This document shows, in pieces, positions 10,292 through 45,580 of a stretch of DNA of 64,000 nt. Position 1 is the first letter of the stretch; every line of letters begins with the position of its first letter. The notes under the pieces were generated by a model. The model did not search any database, was not told where the DNA came from, and worked only from the letters and a program-made list of their open reading frames with translations. This DNA is from a virus, in the UHGV virus genome UHGV-1430915, one strand, 5' to 3'. A program made the position numbers and the translations under genes.

Positions 10292-11299
10292 TTAGTCACC
10301 TTTCAGAGTTGCTTTAACAACCAGCTCTGGGCGGGTGTTAACTGCCAGCATTGAAGTTTCAGATTCAATCTTCTCTTCACGCAGGTATGCAGAGTGTTTA
10401 TACCACATGTACAGTTCCTGTGCAGGGGTATTTGCTTCGTTAACATCATCTGCCGGAGCAAAGTGCAGCTGGAACATCTGATCAATACCCATCGGCAGGA
10501 TGCGAGCCTCTTTCTTAGGAATATTGCCAGAGATATCTTCGATAAAGGTGATACCTTTATGTTCAAACACACGGTATACGCTGTCTTGACCGCCAGCACC
10601 CAGACGGCGACGCAGAGGTTCCTGAGCAGAGCCGTAATAGGTGTATGCCAGTTCTACCAGTGGGTGATGGGTAATAGCACTGAAGAACTCCGGTGAGCAC
10701 AGAGCTACAATACGATAGCCAGCTGCGTTATCGCCAGCTTGCAGCGCGATGTGCAGACGAGCCTCTTCCAGAACCTCCATAGGATCCTGATCTGCTTTTG
10801 CAGGGTCAATCTCAACAGATTTCTGTTCAACACCCCACAGAGTGTAGTAGTCATACTGACAGGTGGTGTCACCAGGTGCATAGGATTTACCCAGAATAGC
10901 CTGGAACAGTGCTTTCTCACGCAGTGCTTCATGAGAAACACGGATACGGCGAACAACGCGGGTTACTACGTCCTGAACAGTTTTCGGAGCATCCGGGGTG
11001 AAGTAACGACGGAAGTTCTGAACATCTGCGGCAGTGATGCCTTTGTCCAGAGGGAAGAACGGGATGTTCAGGTTTTTAACCTGGGCACGTTCACTACCAA
11101 CGTAGTTACGCTCACCGCCACGACGGCGTGCCGGAATGTCGGTTACAACTTCATCAACACGCTCGATCTGAGCAATTGTTGAGGTGCCGAGACGGGTTTC
11201 GAACAGATCCATACCAGTAATCAGTCGGAATTGGCGCGGAACAAGTTCCAGAGTAGCACCTAAATCAACAATGCCAAATTCATCTTTACGAGTAATCAT
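10292..11299 (-). CDS. major capsid protein (lambda gpE-like)
   Basis: 335 aa, follows scaffold and decoration-like genes in lambda-like B-Nu3-D-E order; size and sequence character resemble lambda E family. Confidence 0.65.
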   Translation of the reverse strand: MITRKDEFGIVDLGATLELVPRQFRLITGMDLFETRLGTSTIAQIERVDEVVTDIPARRRGGERNYVGSERAQVKNLNIPFFPLDKGITAADVQNFRRYFTPDAPKTVQDVVTRVVRRIRVSHEALREKALFQAILGKSYAPGDTTCQYDYYTLWGVEQKSVEIDPAKADQDPMEVLEEARLHIALQAGDNAAGYRIVALCSPEFFSAITHHPLVELAYTYYGSAQEPLRRRLGAGGQDSVYRVFEHKGITFIEDISGNIPKKEARILPMGIDQMFQLHFAPADDVNEANTPAQELYMWYKHSAYLREEKIESETSMLAVNTRPELVVKATLKGD

Positions 11300-13220: not shown

Positions 13221-14777
13221 TTAATTTTCCATGTTAGATATGGAATTATCTCTGGTCGATGACATCTTAGAAGTGCCGTTGCCAGTGGATCCTGCAGCCA
13301 TACCATCACCAGCCCTGCTGATGTCCTGGCCCAAGAGCTTCATCAGCTCTTCCTGATCCATGTCTTCGTCAAATCTTTCATCAAACCCGCCTACCTCAAG
13401 AATCTTATTAATTACTGCAGGAGTTTTTGGCAAGTAACCTACAGCACCGATCCTCTGGACAAACTTGGAGAAGCTCTCCATGTCCACTTCTTCAATCAGA
13501 CCAGGTTTCAGTTTAGGCATATCATCATCTTCAAGGATGATACCATTCAATGCCAGAAGCTGTGGAATAAGATCTTTATTGAAGGCCTCAGTGATAATAT
13601 CTATATCACGCTGAACAAAATGACCATGAATGGACTGTTTTGACTCAGACAGAGAGAAGGATCCGACGTTATCGTTACCGAGGTTAATAAATCCAGCACC
13701 GAAACGGTCAAGAATCGCCTTCTTACGGGCATCAATCAAATCTTTAGTAGAATACTGCTTACCCATACCATCAACCCCCTTCAGGGTCATGGAGTAAAGC
13801 TCTTTACCAGACTTATCTCTATCAGACGGAAGTATAAAGAAACTTTGCTCCCCACTATGGGCGTTTGCTGCGTCCAACATAAGATCTGCAACCATTCTCC
13901 CTTCCATCGAATTCGGGTCAATGCTGGCCTTGTTCAAAATATTGGAAGGAATTTTCAGCTCAAGCACACCACCAAGGTCTTTGGAGCAGCCAACAACCTC
14001 AAGGTTTTCAATCAAAACTTTCTCACGGAAAGATCTGTAGCAACCTATCATCGGTGACACACCTGCAGGATTAGATTCTGTTCCTGACAGAGTCATGAGC
14101 ATAAGCTTTTTAGCAGGGATGAAAATTTCAGGCTCATTAAAGCCTTTTGAAGGCATTGCAGCGAGAGGTCCAGCCCAGCGTGCATTCTGAGTGTTTAGAA
14201 ATGCATTAGGTGACTGATAAATACCTGTCAGTGTTCTGCTATTCTTGTCAAAGACAAACGGCTCTGATCTGGACAAACTGGCCTGTGGTCGGAATGCAAT
14301 TTTATCAATAAGAAGCATCCCGGCATATTTACCTTCTTTCTCTCTGCGGTATACTTTCTCAAACAGTGAAAAACCATACTCGTTAAAGGTAGCTGCGCTT
14401 CTTGCAATATCTCGAAGAGTTTGTTGGTTTGCCAAATTACGCAAAGAATACTCTATAAGCTCGGCGGCTTTCTTAGAGTCTTCACTTTTAACATTATAAA
14501 GGATCTTAAAATCATTGAATGCTTTCGTGATGAAAACATATTTTGTATCTAAGGCAGTAGCAACTGTGGAATCACATTTCATAGTCTCCACTGTGGCAAT
14601 CAGCTGAGGCCAACGCAATTCCTCAACCATCATAGATTGTGATTCTGCCATAATTTGGGAAAGTGCGCCAGAACCGATCTCACTCATACGAACATTATGA
14701 GTTGGTGCGCCTGCGTTCCCAGATTTATTCACAGTTTTGGCTGTGGCGTTGTGTTTCCTGCGGTTCTTTTTGGACAC
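13221..14777 (-). CDS. portal protein
   Basis: 518-aa ORF immediately downstream of terminase large subunit. Confidence 0.7.
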   Translation of the reverse strand: MSKKNRRKHNATAKTVNKSGNAGAPTHNVRMSEIGSGALSQIMAESQSMMVEELRWPQLIATVETMKCDSTVATALDTKYVFITKAFNDFKILYNVKSEDSKKAAELIEYSLRNLANQQTLRDIARSAATFNEYGFSLFEKVYRREKEGKYAGMLLIDKIAFRPQASLSRSEPFVFDKNSRTLTGIYQSPNAFLNTQNARWAGPLAAMPSKGFNEPEIFIPAKKLMLMTLSGTESNPAGVSPMIGCYRSFREKVLIENLEVVGCSKDLGGVLELKIPSNILNKASIDPNSMEGRMVADLMLDAANAHSGEQSFFILPSDRDKSGKELYSMTLKGVDGMGKQYSTKDLIDARKKAILDRFGAGFINLGNDNVGSFSLSESKQSIHGHFVQRDIDIITEAFNKDLIPQLLALNGIILEDDDMPKLKPGLIEEVDMESFSKFVQRIGAVGYLPKTPAVINKILEVGGFDERFDEDMDQEELMKLLGQDISRAGDGMAAGSTGNGTSKMSSTRDNSISNMEN

Positions 14778-17775: not shown

Positions 17776-17878
17776 GGTGCTAGGTGATGGAATCGAACCA
17801 CCTATGTATTCAACGACTACCTCGTCTATTTTCAGGATTAAAAATCCTCGCCCTTGCCAAAGGGCTTACCTAGCGCAA
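17776..17878 (-). ncRNA. tRNA-like element (perfect acceptor and T-arm; Lys-TTT-like anticodon loop; about 30 extra nt before T-arm; no encoded CCA)
   Basis: Acceptor GCTAGGT pairs with ACCTAGC, T-loop GGTTCGATTCC present, but region between anticodon and T arms far exceeds any normal variable arm. Confidence 0.4.
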
Positions 17879-17880
17879 TA

Positions 17881-17972
17881 TGTTGACCATGTGGCTAGTC
17901 GGCGATGACGACTGTAACATTTGATAATCCGGTTCTGCTTCCGGCTTTCGCTTAATTACAAGGTCAACAATG
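17881..17972 (-). ncRNA. candidate small structured RNA within tRNA cluster
   Basis: 8-bp closing stem TGTTGACC/GGTCAACA enclosing two hairpins (AGTCG..CGACT and CCGG..CCGG); lacks T-loop signature. Confidence 0.3.
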
Positions 17973-18063
17973 TGGCGGAGAGTAATGGAATCGAACCATC
18001 ATCGAGTCATCCTCAACGGGACGGTTTTCAAGACCGCTTGAGCACCATTGCTCCCTACCCTCC
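17973..18063 (-). tRNA. tRNA-Ser (anticodon TGA)
   Basis: Anticodon loop CTTGAAA, long variable arm, T-loop GGTTCGATTCC, acceptor GGAGGGT/ACTCTCC, CCA encoded. Confidence 0.8.
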
Positions 18064-18177
18064 TTTATAAATTACACTGATAATGACACTGATTTTCGAG
18101 CAGTTAGTGACTAGTATAAACGACGATAAATATCAATGTCATTATCTGTATGATTTATGCATTTAAAAATATAAATT

Positions 18178-18401: not shown

Positions 18402-18430
18402 ATATTACACTGTTAGGCAAAGTTTGTCAA
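18402..18430 (-). promoter_or_regulatory. sigma70-like promoter for tRNA cluster (minus strand)
   Basis: TTGACA-N17-TAATAT on minus strand about 50 nt upstream of tRNA-Arg. Confidence 0.45.
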
Positions 18431-44753: not shown

Positions 44754-44791
44754 AAGTTCTTGACACATCTCAATCTGAAAGGAGTCCCAAC

Positions 44792-45580
44792 ATGGGTCGA
44801 GCTAAAGAAACAAAACGCATGCGTGATGAAGCCAAAGAGGCTCGCAAATCTGATCGTCTGCGTAAGGCTGCTGAGAAATTTGCTGACGAACGAGAGCACA
44901 CAGCTCCAGCTCTCAGACCAATGAACAAAAAGCAGCAAAAGTATCTTGATTATCTAGGATCGCGTAAGATTATTATTGTAAACGGTGTGTTTGGATCCGG
45001 TAAGACATTCATGGCATCCGCATATGCAGGTGATCTTTTGCGTAAGAACGAGATTGATAAGATCATTGTTGCACGCCCTTACGTTCAGACAGGAAAGACT
45101 TCAGGGTTTAAACCTGGAAACGCAATGCAGAAACTGTGGCCCTATCTCCGAAGCATGATGGACACGATTTGTCGTCGTGTTGGCAAAGGTGCTTTTGCCG
45201 CAATGCTGGGGGATGGTCAGAACAGTCGTATCGAGATCTGTGAAGTTGAAAGCATTCGTGGTCGTAGTTTCGATGAGCGGTGCTTTGTCCTAATTGACGA
45301 GGCACAGCAAACTAACCCTGAAGAAATGTTATCAATTATCACAAGGATCTCTGATCAGGCCACACTTGTAATCATGGGTGATAATAGCCAACGTGACATC
45401 CCTGGTAAGTCTGGGCTTGCATGGGTAACGGATTTCTTTACTCGTCATCCAGATCCTGAGGTTGGGATGATTAGCTTTGATAGTCCAGACGATGTCGTTC
45501 GTTCTGGGTTGGGTCGTCAGATCGCACTCAATCTTATTGAGGATCGTGCAAATCATATTTGGACCCCTGTTTCCGAGTAA
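44792..45580 (+). CDS. phoH: PhoH-like ATPase
   Basis: Walker A VNGVFGSGKTFMA and overall PhoH-family architecture, 262 aa. Confidence 0.8.
   Translation: MGRAKETKRMRDEAKEARKSDRLRKAAEKFADEREHTAPALRPMNKKQQKYLDYLGSRKIIIVNGVFGSGKTFMASAYAGDLLRKNEIDKIIVARPYVQTGKTSGFKPGNAMQKLWPYLRSMMDTICRRVGKGAFAAMLGDGQNSRIEICEVESIRGRSFDERCFVLIDEAQQTNPEEMLSIITRISDQATLVIMGDNSQRDIPGKSGLAWVTDFFTRHPDPEVGMISFDSPDDVVRSGLGRQIALNLIEDRANHIWTPVSE

Follow-up and report, generated by a model that had tools for sequence, protein, structure and literature searches.

The tRNA cluster of the virus genome UHGV-1430915, of which we analyzed a stretch of 64,000 nucleotides (nt) that we call the window, contains two non-canonical RNA elements. 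Both lie on the minus strand with the tRNA genes, between tRNA-Ser and tRNA-Thr, where a first-pass annotation of positions 17776-17972 had placed them. Element 1 (17776-17874) is tRNA-shaped, and element 2 (17881-17969) is a compact module built on a three-way junction. We propose, with about as much confidence as doubt, that both are functional, selectively maintained non-coding RNA genes that are co-transcribed with the tRNAs and released as small stable RNAs. The first-pass annotation had left the choice between a pseudo-tRNA, a processed stable RNA like those of the phage T4 tRNA region, and a decoy or regulatory RNA. Covariation argues that neither element is a decaying pseudogene. Every proposed pair of element 1 is kept throughout its family, 11 of them with compensatory changes, and element 2 is conserved around a covarying closing stem. 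The evidence favors a T4-like processed RNA or a decoy or regulatory RNA over the pseudo-tRNA.

At 100% identity, the region matches Escherichia phages vB_EcoM-ECP32 and EduardKellenberger (Bas59; Vequintavirinae, Vequintavirus), and by sequence the window genome is a Vequintavirus, an rV5-like coliphage. In a phage collection searched by blastn, 114 records covered at least 80% of a 197-nt query spanning both elements, and 117 of the 152 matching records were at least 95% identical to it. More than 110 rV5-like genomes carry element 2.

Structure and Family of Element 1

The acceptor stem of element 1 (GCUAGGU, 17874-17868, with ACCUAGC, 17785-17779) is a perfect helix of 7 base pairs (bp). 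A8 and A9 precede the D arm (GCCCUU-UGGC-AAGGGC, 17850-17865), where a 6-bp stem with a 4-nt loop containing GG is possible. The anticodon-like arm (AGGA-UUUUUAA-UCCU, 17834-17848) places UUU at 17842-17840. It is followed by a 31-nt variable region (17803-17833), composed of GAAAAUA, a hairpin (GACGA-GGUAG-UCGUU, 17826-17812) and GAAUACAUA, and by the T arm (GGUGG-UUCGAUU-CCAUC, 17786-17802). The RNA ends with the discriminator A73 and CC (17776-17778); the next base is U, and the CCA end is two-thirds encoded, its final A being absent. The first-pass annotation had read the 7-bp acceptor stem, the D and T arms and the Lys-TTT-compatible loop correctly and had estimated the distance between the anticodon and T arms well, at about 30 nt. 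Its statement that no CCA is encoded holds for the terminal A but not for CC.

Prediction programs recognized the element, and none of them called a normal tRNA, so the refuting outcome named in the first-pass annotation did not occur. ARAGORN reported it as 'tRNA-??? (atcc)' with a four-base anticodon, a fold that needs an all-A/U stem and that the family alignment does not support. The Rfam tRNA model (RF00005) matched it over its full length with 35.5 bits (gathering score 29), a 26-nt insertion and UUU as the anticodon. The minimum-free-energy fold is a cloverleaf with an extra arm (z = -3.0), although both elements were judged to exceed chance by their homologues rather than by their fold energies. 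The variable region fails the definitions of class I (4-5 nt) and class II (an arm of 13-22 nt with flanks of 1-2 nt), as it measures 31 nt, with 6 nt and 9 nt of conserved single-stranded sequence flanking the extra arm. Normal tRNAs have no such conserved module. A8 and U14 also reverse the U8-A14 of a usual tRNA.

Homologues of element 1 were found in Avunavirus Av-05, in the Seunaviruses NINP13076, PVP-SE1, GAP31, 4MG and Csp-D17, in the Mydoviruses KB57 and Mydo, in the Henunavirus Erwinia phage pEp_SNUABM_01, in uncultivated contigs and in the N4-like Salmonella phage UTK0002. By sequence, then, the family spans the Vequintavirinae (Vequinta-, Avuna-, Seuna-, Mydo- and Henunavirus) and one N4-like phage. 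Its labels in GenBank relatives are tRNA-Lys, tRNA-OTHER, tRNA-TERM and 'tRNA-???(atcc)', and some records do not annotate it; the structure described here accounts for this inconsistency. The rV5 genome paper lists six tRNAs, with neither element among them (PMC3606486).

All 23 proposed pairs of element 1 are standard in all 13 distinct members (299 cells), and 11 of the 23 are compensatory, with changes on both sides. The observed covariation score was matched by 0 of 500 shuffles, and sliding the pair partners by one to three columns lowered pairing to 35-48%. Three of the six D-arm pairs covary, as does the anticodon-like stem. The 11 compensatory pairs include a tertiary one between the third D-loop base and T-loop position 56, which is G:C in 10 members and U:A in 3. 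This pair indicates that element 1 very probably adopts the L shape of a tRNA and keeps its elbow intact. An extra-arm hairpin is present in all 11 members tested, with different sequences, a length of 5-8 pairs and a near-constant start and end. In RNAfold predictions, its stem begins five bases after the start of the folded segment and ends three before its end in 9 of the 11 members, the Erwinia phage and PVP-SE1 deviating slightly. The sequences flanking the extra arm are near-invariant across the family, reading GAAAAUA(G) before it and (U)GAAUACAUA after it.

The anticodon-like loop is the least conserved part of the family. It reads UUUUUAA in rV5-like phages, UUUAUAA in Av-05 and CAUCAAA, with A33, in the Erwinia phage, UTK0002 and three contigs, while Seuna- and Mydoviruses have the six-base loops CAUCCA, CAGCCA or CCUCAA. 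A 7-nt loop with U33 and a purine at 37 is present in the window, rV5-like and Av-05 copies and not in most genera. UUU and A73 occur in the rV5-like clade only; all other members have U73, which in most of the family is followed by CCA. Since decoding is impossible for most relatives, it is probably the tRNA body and the extra-arm module, and not codon reading, that carry the constant function of the family, to judge from this conservation pattern. With a constant extra module and a variable anticodon-like loop, the family forms a natural experiment on tRNA mimicry versus decoding.

Seuna- and Avunaviruses carry another unannotated element of about 170-190 nt on the 3' side of the element 1 homologue (loci L128, about 1600-1790; L127, about 1310-1480; L138; L139). 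It has a tRNA-like start, GUGCAUUAGCUCAG... or GUGUAUUAGCUUAU..., and a complementary end, ...CCAUGCA or ...CCAUACAC, and it matched no Rfam family.

Possible Decoding or Mimicry of tRNA-Lys

The main rival for element 1 is an unusual but ordinary decoding tRNA-Lys(UUU) that reads AAA and AAG and carries its extra arm as neutral baggage. We regard this as possible but on balance unlikely. The element scores above the Rfam tRNA gathering threshold, its 7-nt loop combines U33, UUU and A37 with A73, the tertiary pair of the elbow is conserved, and several GenBank records annotate tRNA-Lys. A decoder would, however, be expected to conserve its anticodon loop best and its extra-arm flanks least, and the family shows the reverse. 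Relatives with 6-nt loops or A33 and the failure of ARAGORN to assign an anticodon speak against decoding as well. E. coli tRNA-Lys(UUU) is abundant, and supplementing codon supply would be a weak motive for the phage to carry another copy.

In the window phage, element 1 looks, from its loop and discriminator, like tRNA-Lys to lysyl-tRNA synthetase (LysRS) and to readers of the tRNA-Lys anticodon loop. The identity elements of E. coli LysRS are U34, U35, U36 and A73, and the loop of the host tRNA-Lys is CUUUUAA. With U33, UUU, A37 and A73, the rV5-like copy has thus acquired the full E. coli lysine identity set. T4 tRNAs without an encoded CCA are completed by host enzymes, so the missing terminal A of element 1 is not disqualifying.

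Phage tRNAs are being reinterpreted as counter-defense tools. The E. coli nuclease PrrC and the PARIS effector AriB both act on tRNA-Lys(UUU), and a variant tRNA-Lys of phage T5 neutralizes PARIS (PMC11464382). Phage tRNAs with altered anticodon arms escape tRNA-cleaving nucleases (PMC10264068). Since these systems target tRNA-Lys(UUU) and phage variants escape them, we favor, by analogy, a role of element 1 as a tRNA-Lys surrogate or decoy. Element 1 would then take part in a phage-host conflict over tRNA-Lys(UUU), either as a surrogate unseen by host anticodon nucleases or as a decoy for them.

Structure of Element 2

Element 2 (17881-17969, minus strand) is supported by a covariance-model match (R1; 91.7 bits, E = 1e-17) and by the RNAalifold consensus. 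Its closing stem P1 pairs UGUUGACCUUGU (17958-17969) with ACAUGGUCAACA (17892-17881) over 12 positions with one U-U mismatch and encloses two hairpins. The first-pass annotation had described an 8-bp closing stem around two hairpins; both hairpins and the stem were found, but the stem is longer. The name three-hairpin element was likewise mistaken, because a closing stem and two hairpins make a three-way junction.

Along the transcript, the 5' strand of P1 is followed by junction J12 (17945-17957), which consists of the invariant AAUUAAGCGA and a variable 3-nt linker, AAG. The hairpin P2 (CCGG[AAGCAGAA]CCGG, 17929-17944) comes next, followed by J23 (AU-uAu-CAAAUG-UUAC, 17914-17928), which has a 1-nt deletion relative to lambda. 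The hairpin P3 (AGUCG[UCAUCGC]CGACU, 17897-17913) then leads into J31 (AGCC), which together with the 3' strand of P1 occupies 17881-17896. Element 2 has no T-loop, as the first-pass annotation had observed, and its single-sequence fold has z = -2.4. RNAalifold predicts that G17918-C17894 and U17917-G17895 (G-C and Y-G) extend P3. GCGA of J12 and UCGC of the P3 loop form a possible 4-bp pseudoknot, on which covariation is uninformative because both sides are invariant. Element 2 has no intrinsic terminator and no U tail of the kind typical of Hfq-dependent small RNAs (sRNAs).

A short peptide starting at the invariant AUG was considered and rejected. It would be the only short AUG-started open reading frame (ORF), and a 1-nt insertion or deletion after this AUG shifts the frame between the window and lambda, so no conserved peptide results.

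Homologues and Covariation of Element 2

The interior of element 2 is 85-89% identical by blastn in lambda (44866-44934), in other lambdoid phages, in P7 and in the Salmonella siphovirus ST1UNAM; the full lambda copy covers 44855-44943. More than 100 additional copies emerged when viral contigs were scanned with a sequence pattern, the majority of them in lambdoid prophages and P1-like elements, and a search that allowed a base other than G at the covarying P3 position returned two rV5-like contigs only. The structure-based covariance model found exactly one copy per matching locus in 33 of the 45 sources searched and no match in other genera of Vequintavirinae. Among complete E. coli genomes, 426 of 5426 carry element 2. 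A scan of species-representative genomes gave 22 matches (L142-L163). One is an Enterobacter chromosome, and most of the 22 lie in non-enterobacterial taxa (Pseudomonas, Shewanella, Bacillus relatives and others). Three matches fall on low-coverage contigs of about 48.4-48.5 kb, and the others are mostly on short contigs. Most of these matches look like lambda DNA contamination of the assemblies, and the scan revealed no distant homologues.

The core of about 65 nt is almost invariant, and substitutions concentrate in three short linkers. Its layout is AAUUAAGCGA-nnn; CCGG[AAGCAGAA]CCGG; AU-nAn-CAAAUG-yGUAC; (A/G)G(G/U)CG[UCAUCGC]CG(C/A)C(C/U); AGC, where n is variable. On inspection of the alignments, no covariation was seen between the three linkers. 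The closing stem behaves in the opposite way. Its sequence exists in at least six unrelated versions, and stem P1 pairs in every setting named here: the window has UGUUGACCuUGU / ACAuGGUCAACA, the divergent rV5-like contig L126 has GAGGAUCA / UGAUCCUU, lambda has GUUGUGCUG / CAGCACAAC, other lambdoid prophages have GUUGUGGUG / CACCACAC, P7 has UUUGGCU / AGCCAAG and ST1UNAM has AUUUAGCU / AGCUGAGU. In L126, the core is identical to that of the window except for a 3-nt linker, and stem P1 is wholly different.

Across 31 distinct sequences, 10 of 11 pairs in stem P1 and 2 of 5 in P3 are compensatory, and the observed score was matched by 0 of 500 shuffles. The changes in P3 are a U-A pair in the window versus G-C in lambda and an outer pair that is A-U, G-U, G-C or A.C. 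P2 is near-invariant in this set, one locus (L152) changing and breaking the outer pair and ST1UNAM changing one loop base, so its pairs carry no covariation information. MAFFT alone mis-registered stem P1 in the rV5-like rows, and a model-guided alignment was therefore used. RNAalifold independently recovered P1, P2 and P3 and agrees with this alignment, as does manual pairing. Stem P1 is broken in a chimeric copy (L036, 4069-4157), whose 5' flank and P1 strand are of the P7 type and whose 3' strand is of the lambda type. This copy also has a G.A mismatch in P3, and its crossover inside the core indicates that recombination occurs within the conserved sequence.

By every sequence test applied here, element 2 is a new family. 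A search with 4227 Rfam models gave no biologically plausible match on the window and P7 copies at E <= 10 or on the lambda and ST1UNAM copies at E <= 1; the sole overlap, in the search at E <= 10, was a snoR114 match on the antisense strand (E = 7.7). None of 14 element 2 loci gave an Rfam match at gathering level, no feature is annotated at element 2 in RefSeq or GenBank, and a full-text literature search with core strings found no paper. The models of STnc100, AgvB and AsxR (RF02076, RF02702, RF02703) do not cover element 2: STnc100 matches only a segment 3' of it in P7 (L004, 2587-2702, 43 bits), and AgvB and AsxR gave no match. The M3 RNA of phi80, an RNase P substrate, was rejected as an identity for element 2, being annotated in the phi80 record as the homologue of oop at a site near cII and distant from the late leader. 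Between the P2 loop and RyhB, complementarity consists of a 7-nt match to UGCUUCC and is at chance level.

Genomic Settings of Element 2

Element 2 occupies different settings in unrelated phages, always sense to transcription and beside processing signals. In the window phage, it starts 3 nt after the CCA end of tRNA-Ser(UGA) at 17973, this tRNA (17973-18063, minus strand, called by ARAGORN) being its upstream boundary. The 6-nt spacer UAUUGC (17875-17880) separates it from element 1. In P7 and 167 plasmid records, element 2 follows an unannotated tRNA-Ser inside the C1-controlled tRNA-ban operon. Of these plasmid records, 164 are non-mobilizable, and those among the matches listed measure about 90 kb, like P1-type phage-plasmids. 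The window tRNA-Ser(UGA) is about 90% identical to the P7 tRNA-Ser (L004, 2391-2477). Since element 2 follows this tRNA in both phages, the two appear, from their sequences, to have moved as a block between rV5-like and P1-like phages.

The remaining settings extend beyond this tRNA. In one prophage (L062), element 2 follows three tRNAs (14031-14253), and in another (L121) a Sib antitoxin RNA (RF00113, 111 bits; 10464-10612) lies about 230 nt upstream. Together, these two loci place element 2 in a hot spot for non-coding RNA cargo. In lambda, the element lies in the late leader, about 75 nt after the tR' terminator of 6S RNA. In ST1UNAM, it occupies a non-coding insert of about 700 nt antisense to tail genes, in which a consensus-like promoter and a terminator-like hairpin can be read by eye.

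In P7 and ST1UNAM, stem P1 is the inner end of a longer helix, which runs on for at least 20 bp as (G)GUAAGAGCA / UGCUCUUUCC. Lambdoid prophages carry the long hairpin GGUAAGAGCA / UGCUCUUUCC between tR' and element 2 (L003, 1118-1200; lambda, about 44783-44865; equivalents in L010-L122), with a hypervariable apical insert, and ST1UNAM has two such modules in tandem. In lambda, the equivalent hairpin stands directly upstream of element 2 with a different apical insert, which corresponds to LPR2, a 63-nt RNA seen on northern blots during lytic growth (bioRxiv 10.1101/2024.10.31.621285). The published LPR2 probe is the exact complement of lambda 44816-44850. Because the long stem carries LPR2 in lambda and element 2 in P7 and ST1UNAM, it looks like a holder for small-RNA cassettes that are cut out of it. 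By analogy only, the tRNA array of rV5-like phages would do the job of this holder, which would support excision of element 2 as a discrete RNA. In lambda, the lower stem of the long hairpin competes with stem P1 for the GUUGUG strand. At other lambdoid loci stem P1 forms, and a GCUG-to-GGUG change is compensated only on the downstream strand.

Proposed Processing and Function

From the structures, conservation, covariation and genomic contexts described above, we infer how both RNAs would be processed, accumulate, be aminoacylated and meet molecular partners. Host tRNA processing would free both RNAs through two RNase P cuts, one at G17874 and one where tRNA-Thr begins, and through 3' trimming behind tRNA-Ser. 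RNase P is specific for tRNA-shaped substrates, which is the basis for the proposed cut at G17874, and this cut would also create the 3' end of element 2. For element 1, the most likely course is tRNA-like processing, then the CCA-adding enzyme and then recognition by LysRS. Element 2 would be an autonomous three-way-junction module of about 90 nt that is exchanged horizontally among coliphages and is always sited for excision, either in tRNA arrays or in or beside a long RNase III-type hairpin. Its near-invariant junctions and loops would most likely bind a host or phage factor in trans, whereas stem P1 need only pair. An arbitrary-sequence stem, a near-invariant unpaired core, occurrence in unrelated phages and sense orientation are together what is expected of a trans-acting structured RNA. 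The relation between structure and function of element 2 is directly testable in lambda genetics.

Several observations weigh against this reading of the two elements as stable functional RNAs. For element 1, most members have 6-nt or A33 loops and are unable to decode, and the lysine interpretation may over-interpret one clade. The anticodon stem has 4 pairs only and is flanked by G and G, A8/U14 replace U8/A14, and the terminal A of CCA is absent. The 31-nt variable region with its single-stranded flanks of 6 and 9 nt may clash with LysRS, EF-Tu or the ribosome. For element 2, the lambda minimum-free-energy fold puts the 5' strand of P1 into the LPR2 hairpin, and the model-guided alignment behind the pair counts leans towards the model. 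Being invariant or nearly so, P2, the loops and the candidate pseudoknot receive no covariation support. The family is narrow, confined to enterobacterial phages, and its high identity could derive in part from recent horizontal transfer rather than from constraint.

A cis-acting role is the strongest competitor for element 2, and we consider it doubtful. Element 2 would then be a folding insulator or a processing or stability element for tRNA maturation, or a protective 5' structure on the lambda late mRNA. It always lies beside a processing site, be it the 3' end of a tRNA, a site for RNase P or a long hairpin of the RNase III type, and the lambda copy sits in the late mRNA leader just past tR'. 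A spacer or stabilizer, however, needs helices and not some 45 invariant unpaired nucleotides. The ST1UNAM copy also argues against cis action, since it belongs to a non-coding unit of its own, runs antisense to the tail genes and has neither a tRNA that ARAGORN calls nor an mRNA downstream.

A more far-reaching version of the trans-acting reading is improbable enough that we offer it as speculation. Element 2 would be the first member of a new class of compact RNA effectors of phages, cut from precursors of tRNAs or of the late leader and traded as a cassette by lambda, P1/P7-like and rV5-like phages. Its invariant junctions would inhibit or decoy a host factor, such as a tRNA-directed defense nuclease or an RNA-processing enzyme, or would form the core of a new self-cleaving ribozyme. 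Element 1 would be its companion tRNA mimic, with an interchangeable loop tuned to the tRNA that the defenses of the local host target.

That element 2 is a new small self-cleaving ribozyme trimming the transcript beside the tRNAs seems quite improbable. HDV-like 'theta' ribozymes do sit 3' of tRNAs in gut phages, and element 2 immediately follows tRNA-Ser in two phage types and the tRNA trio in L062. Its compact core of about 65 nt, invariant junction nucleotides, possible pseudoknot and arbitrary closing stem would suit such an RNA. An outer stem around two simple hairpins nevertheless misfits the HDV fold, and no hammerhead, twister, pistol, hatchet, twister-sister or HDV model matched the window and P7 copies (E <= 10) or the lambda and ST1UNAM copies (E <= 1).

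Conservation at the DNA level, as a recombination or mobility site, is hardly credible. The crossover inside the core of L036, with its P7-type 5' and lambda-type 3' flanks, and the position of element 2 at known mosaic or 'moron' junctions (PMC4104026) are what such a site would show. Its consistent sense orientation, the upkeep of stem P1 through G-U wobbles, which pair only in RNA, and a variation that follows linker versus core all point to RNA instead. The cis-acting, ribozyme and DNA-site explanations are each partly supported and fit the whole pattern less well than a trans-acting RNA. A reading as functionless, decaying remnants, in which element 1 is a pseudo-tRNA and element 2 a spacer whose hairpins arose by chance, could appeal to the lack of standard annotation, including the absence of both elements from the list in the rV5 genome paper (PMC3606486), and to fold z-scores that are moderate only (-3.0 and -2.4), but it is close to untenable and largely refuted by covariation, given the complete pairing of element 1 with 11 compensatory pairs across five genera, the nearly invariant core of element 2 in unrelated phage types with its re-coded yet paired P1, and the large number of closely matching records (114 covering at least 80% of the two-element query; 117 of 152 at 95% identity or more).

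Comparison with Known RNAs

In setting, both elements come closest to T4 species 1 (rnaC) and species 2 (rnaD), which likewise lie in a phage tRNA cluster, on the tRNA strand and adjoining tRNA genes (tRNA-Arg in T4). Genomic setting alone is shared. T4 rnaC has a tRNA-like T arm (CCGGG-UUCGAAU-CCCGG) and an acceptor-like stem, as element 1 does, but rnaC (139 nt) and rnaD (119 nt) differ in architecture from both elements. The T4 RNAs are known to accumulate, which for elements 1 and 2 is a prediction. A distant blastn search with both elements returned no T4-like phage among the organism counts or the matches listed. To our knowledge, the odd stable RNAs found in such clusters, T4 species 1 and 2 among them, have gone 50 years without an assigned function; the two cluster RNAs described here are under clear structural selection.

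Element 1 shares with canonical and class II tRNAs (RF00005) the four-arm cloverleaf, the T-loop UUCGAUU, GG in the D-loop and the covarying 19:56 pair. It differs from them in the 31-nt variable region with long conserved flanks, A8/U14, the possible 6-bp D stem, the 4-bp anticodon stem and a loop that is unconserved in the family. Element 1 recalls tRNA-Sec (RF01852) by its long extra arm and by a possible 6-bp D stem that closes a 4-nt loop, and some family members do so by the UCA triplet in their CAUCAAA loop. tRNA-Sec is the best sub-threshold clan match for several homologues (29-39 bits; gathering score 47). The acceptor and T helices of element 1 are, however, 7/5 instead of 8/5, the window copy has UUU and not UCA, and the discriminator is A or U and not G. 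With 7/5 helices and scores below threshold, element 1 is not a tRNA-Sec.

LPR2 shares the lambda late leader with element 2, which starts 5 nt past the LPR2 probe target, and element 2 occupies in P7 and ST1UNAM the long-stem holder that carries LPR2 in lambda. LPR2 (probe target 44816-44850) and element 2 (44855-44943) are adjacent but not identical, and they differ in sequence and structure. Other sRNAs of lambdoid late leaders or 'moron' loci that can be set beside element 2 are 6S RNA, StxS and AgvB/AsxR. RNAs of the 3'ETS-leuZ type, E. coli sponges from tRNA spacers, are released from tRNA precursors by tRNA processing (10.1101/2021.04.25.441314), as is proposed here for element 2. They are short, largely unstructured and Hfq-bound, whereas element 2 is a compact three-way junction that also occurs outside tRNA operons.

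The Surrounding tRNA Cluster

All tRNA genes of the cluster are on the minus strand. In the order of transcription, tRNA-Arg(UCU) (18343-18269) and tRNA-Tyr(GUA) (18264-18178) are followed by tRNA-Ser(UGA), element 2, element 1, tRNA-Thr(UGU) (17771-17696), a tRNA with a CAU anticodon (17694-17620) and tRNA-Pro(UGG) (17608-17532). The window tRNA-Ser falls below the Rfam tRNA threshold and was detected by ARAGORN and by a sub-threshold tRNA-Sec match only. The CAU tRNA is annotated as tRNA-Met in most relatives and as tRNA-Ile (AUA, implying lysidine) in BASEL-collection records.

A sigma-70-like promoter (ATGACA, 18-nt spacer, TATACT; 18113-18142, minus strand) lies 5' of tRNA-Ser, a match from a consensus scan that is not in itself evidence of function. 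It may drive a unit of Ser, element 2, element 1, Thr, Met and Pro, to judge from the sequence. Another consensus match (TTGACA-17-TAATAT, 18402-18430, minus strand) lies 5' of tRNA-Arg. A 114-nt AT-rich gap separates tRNA-Tyr from tRNA-Ser and may split the cluster into two transcription units.

Some close relatives, Escherichia phage VB-EcoM-WM (L165, 279-620) and also YP-6, have an ORF of 113 amino acids inserted at the position of tRNA-Pro, and no tRNA-Pro is annotated at this site in VB-EcoM-WM. It may be a mobile ORF that targets the tRNA cluster. About 19 GenBank records numbered MG0656xx and named 'Campylobacter phage' are 97-98% identical to rV5-like coliphages across the region, and one record, CJLB-4, is lambda-like. 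The host labels look wrong, or the isolates look contaminated.

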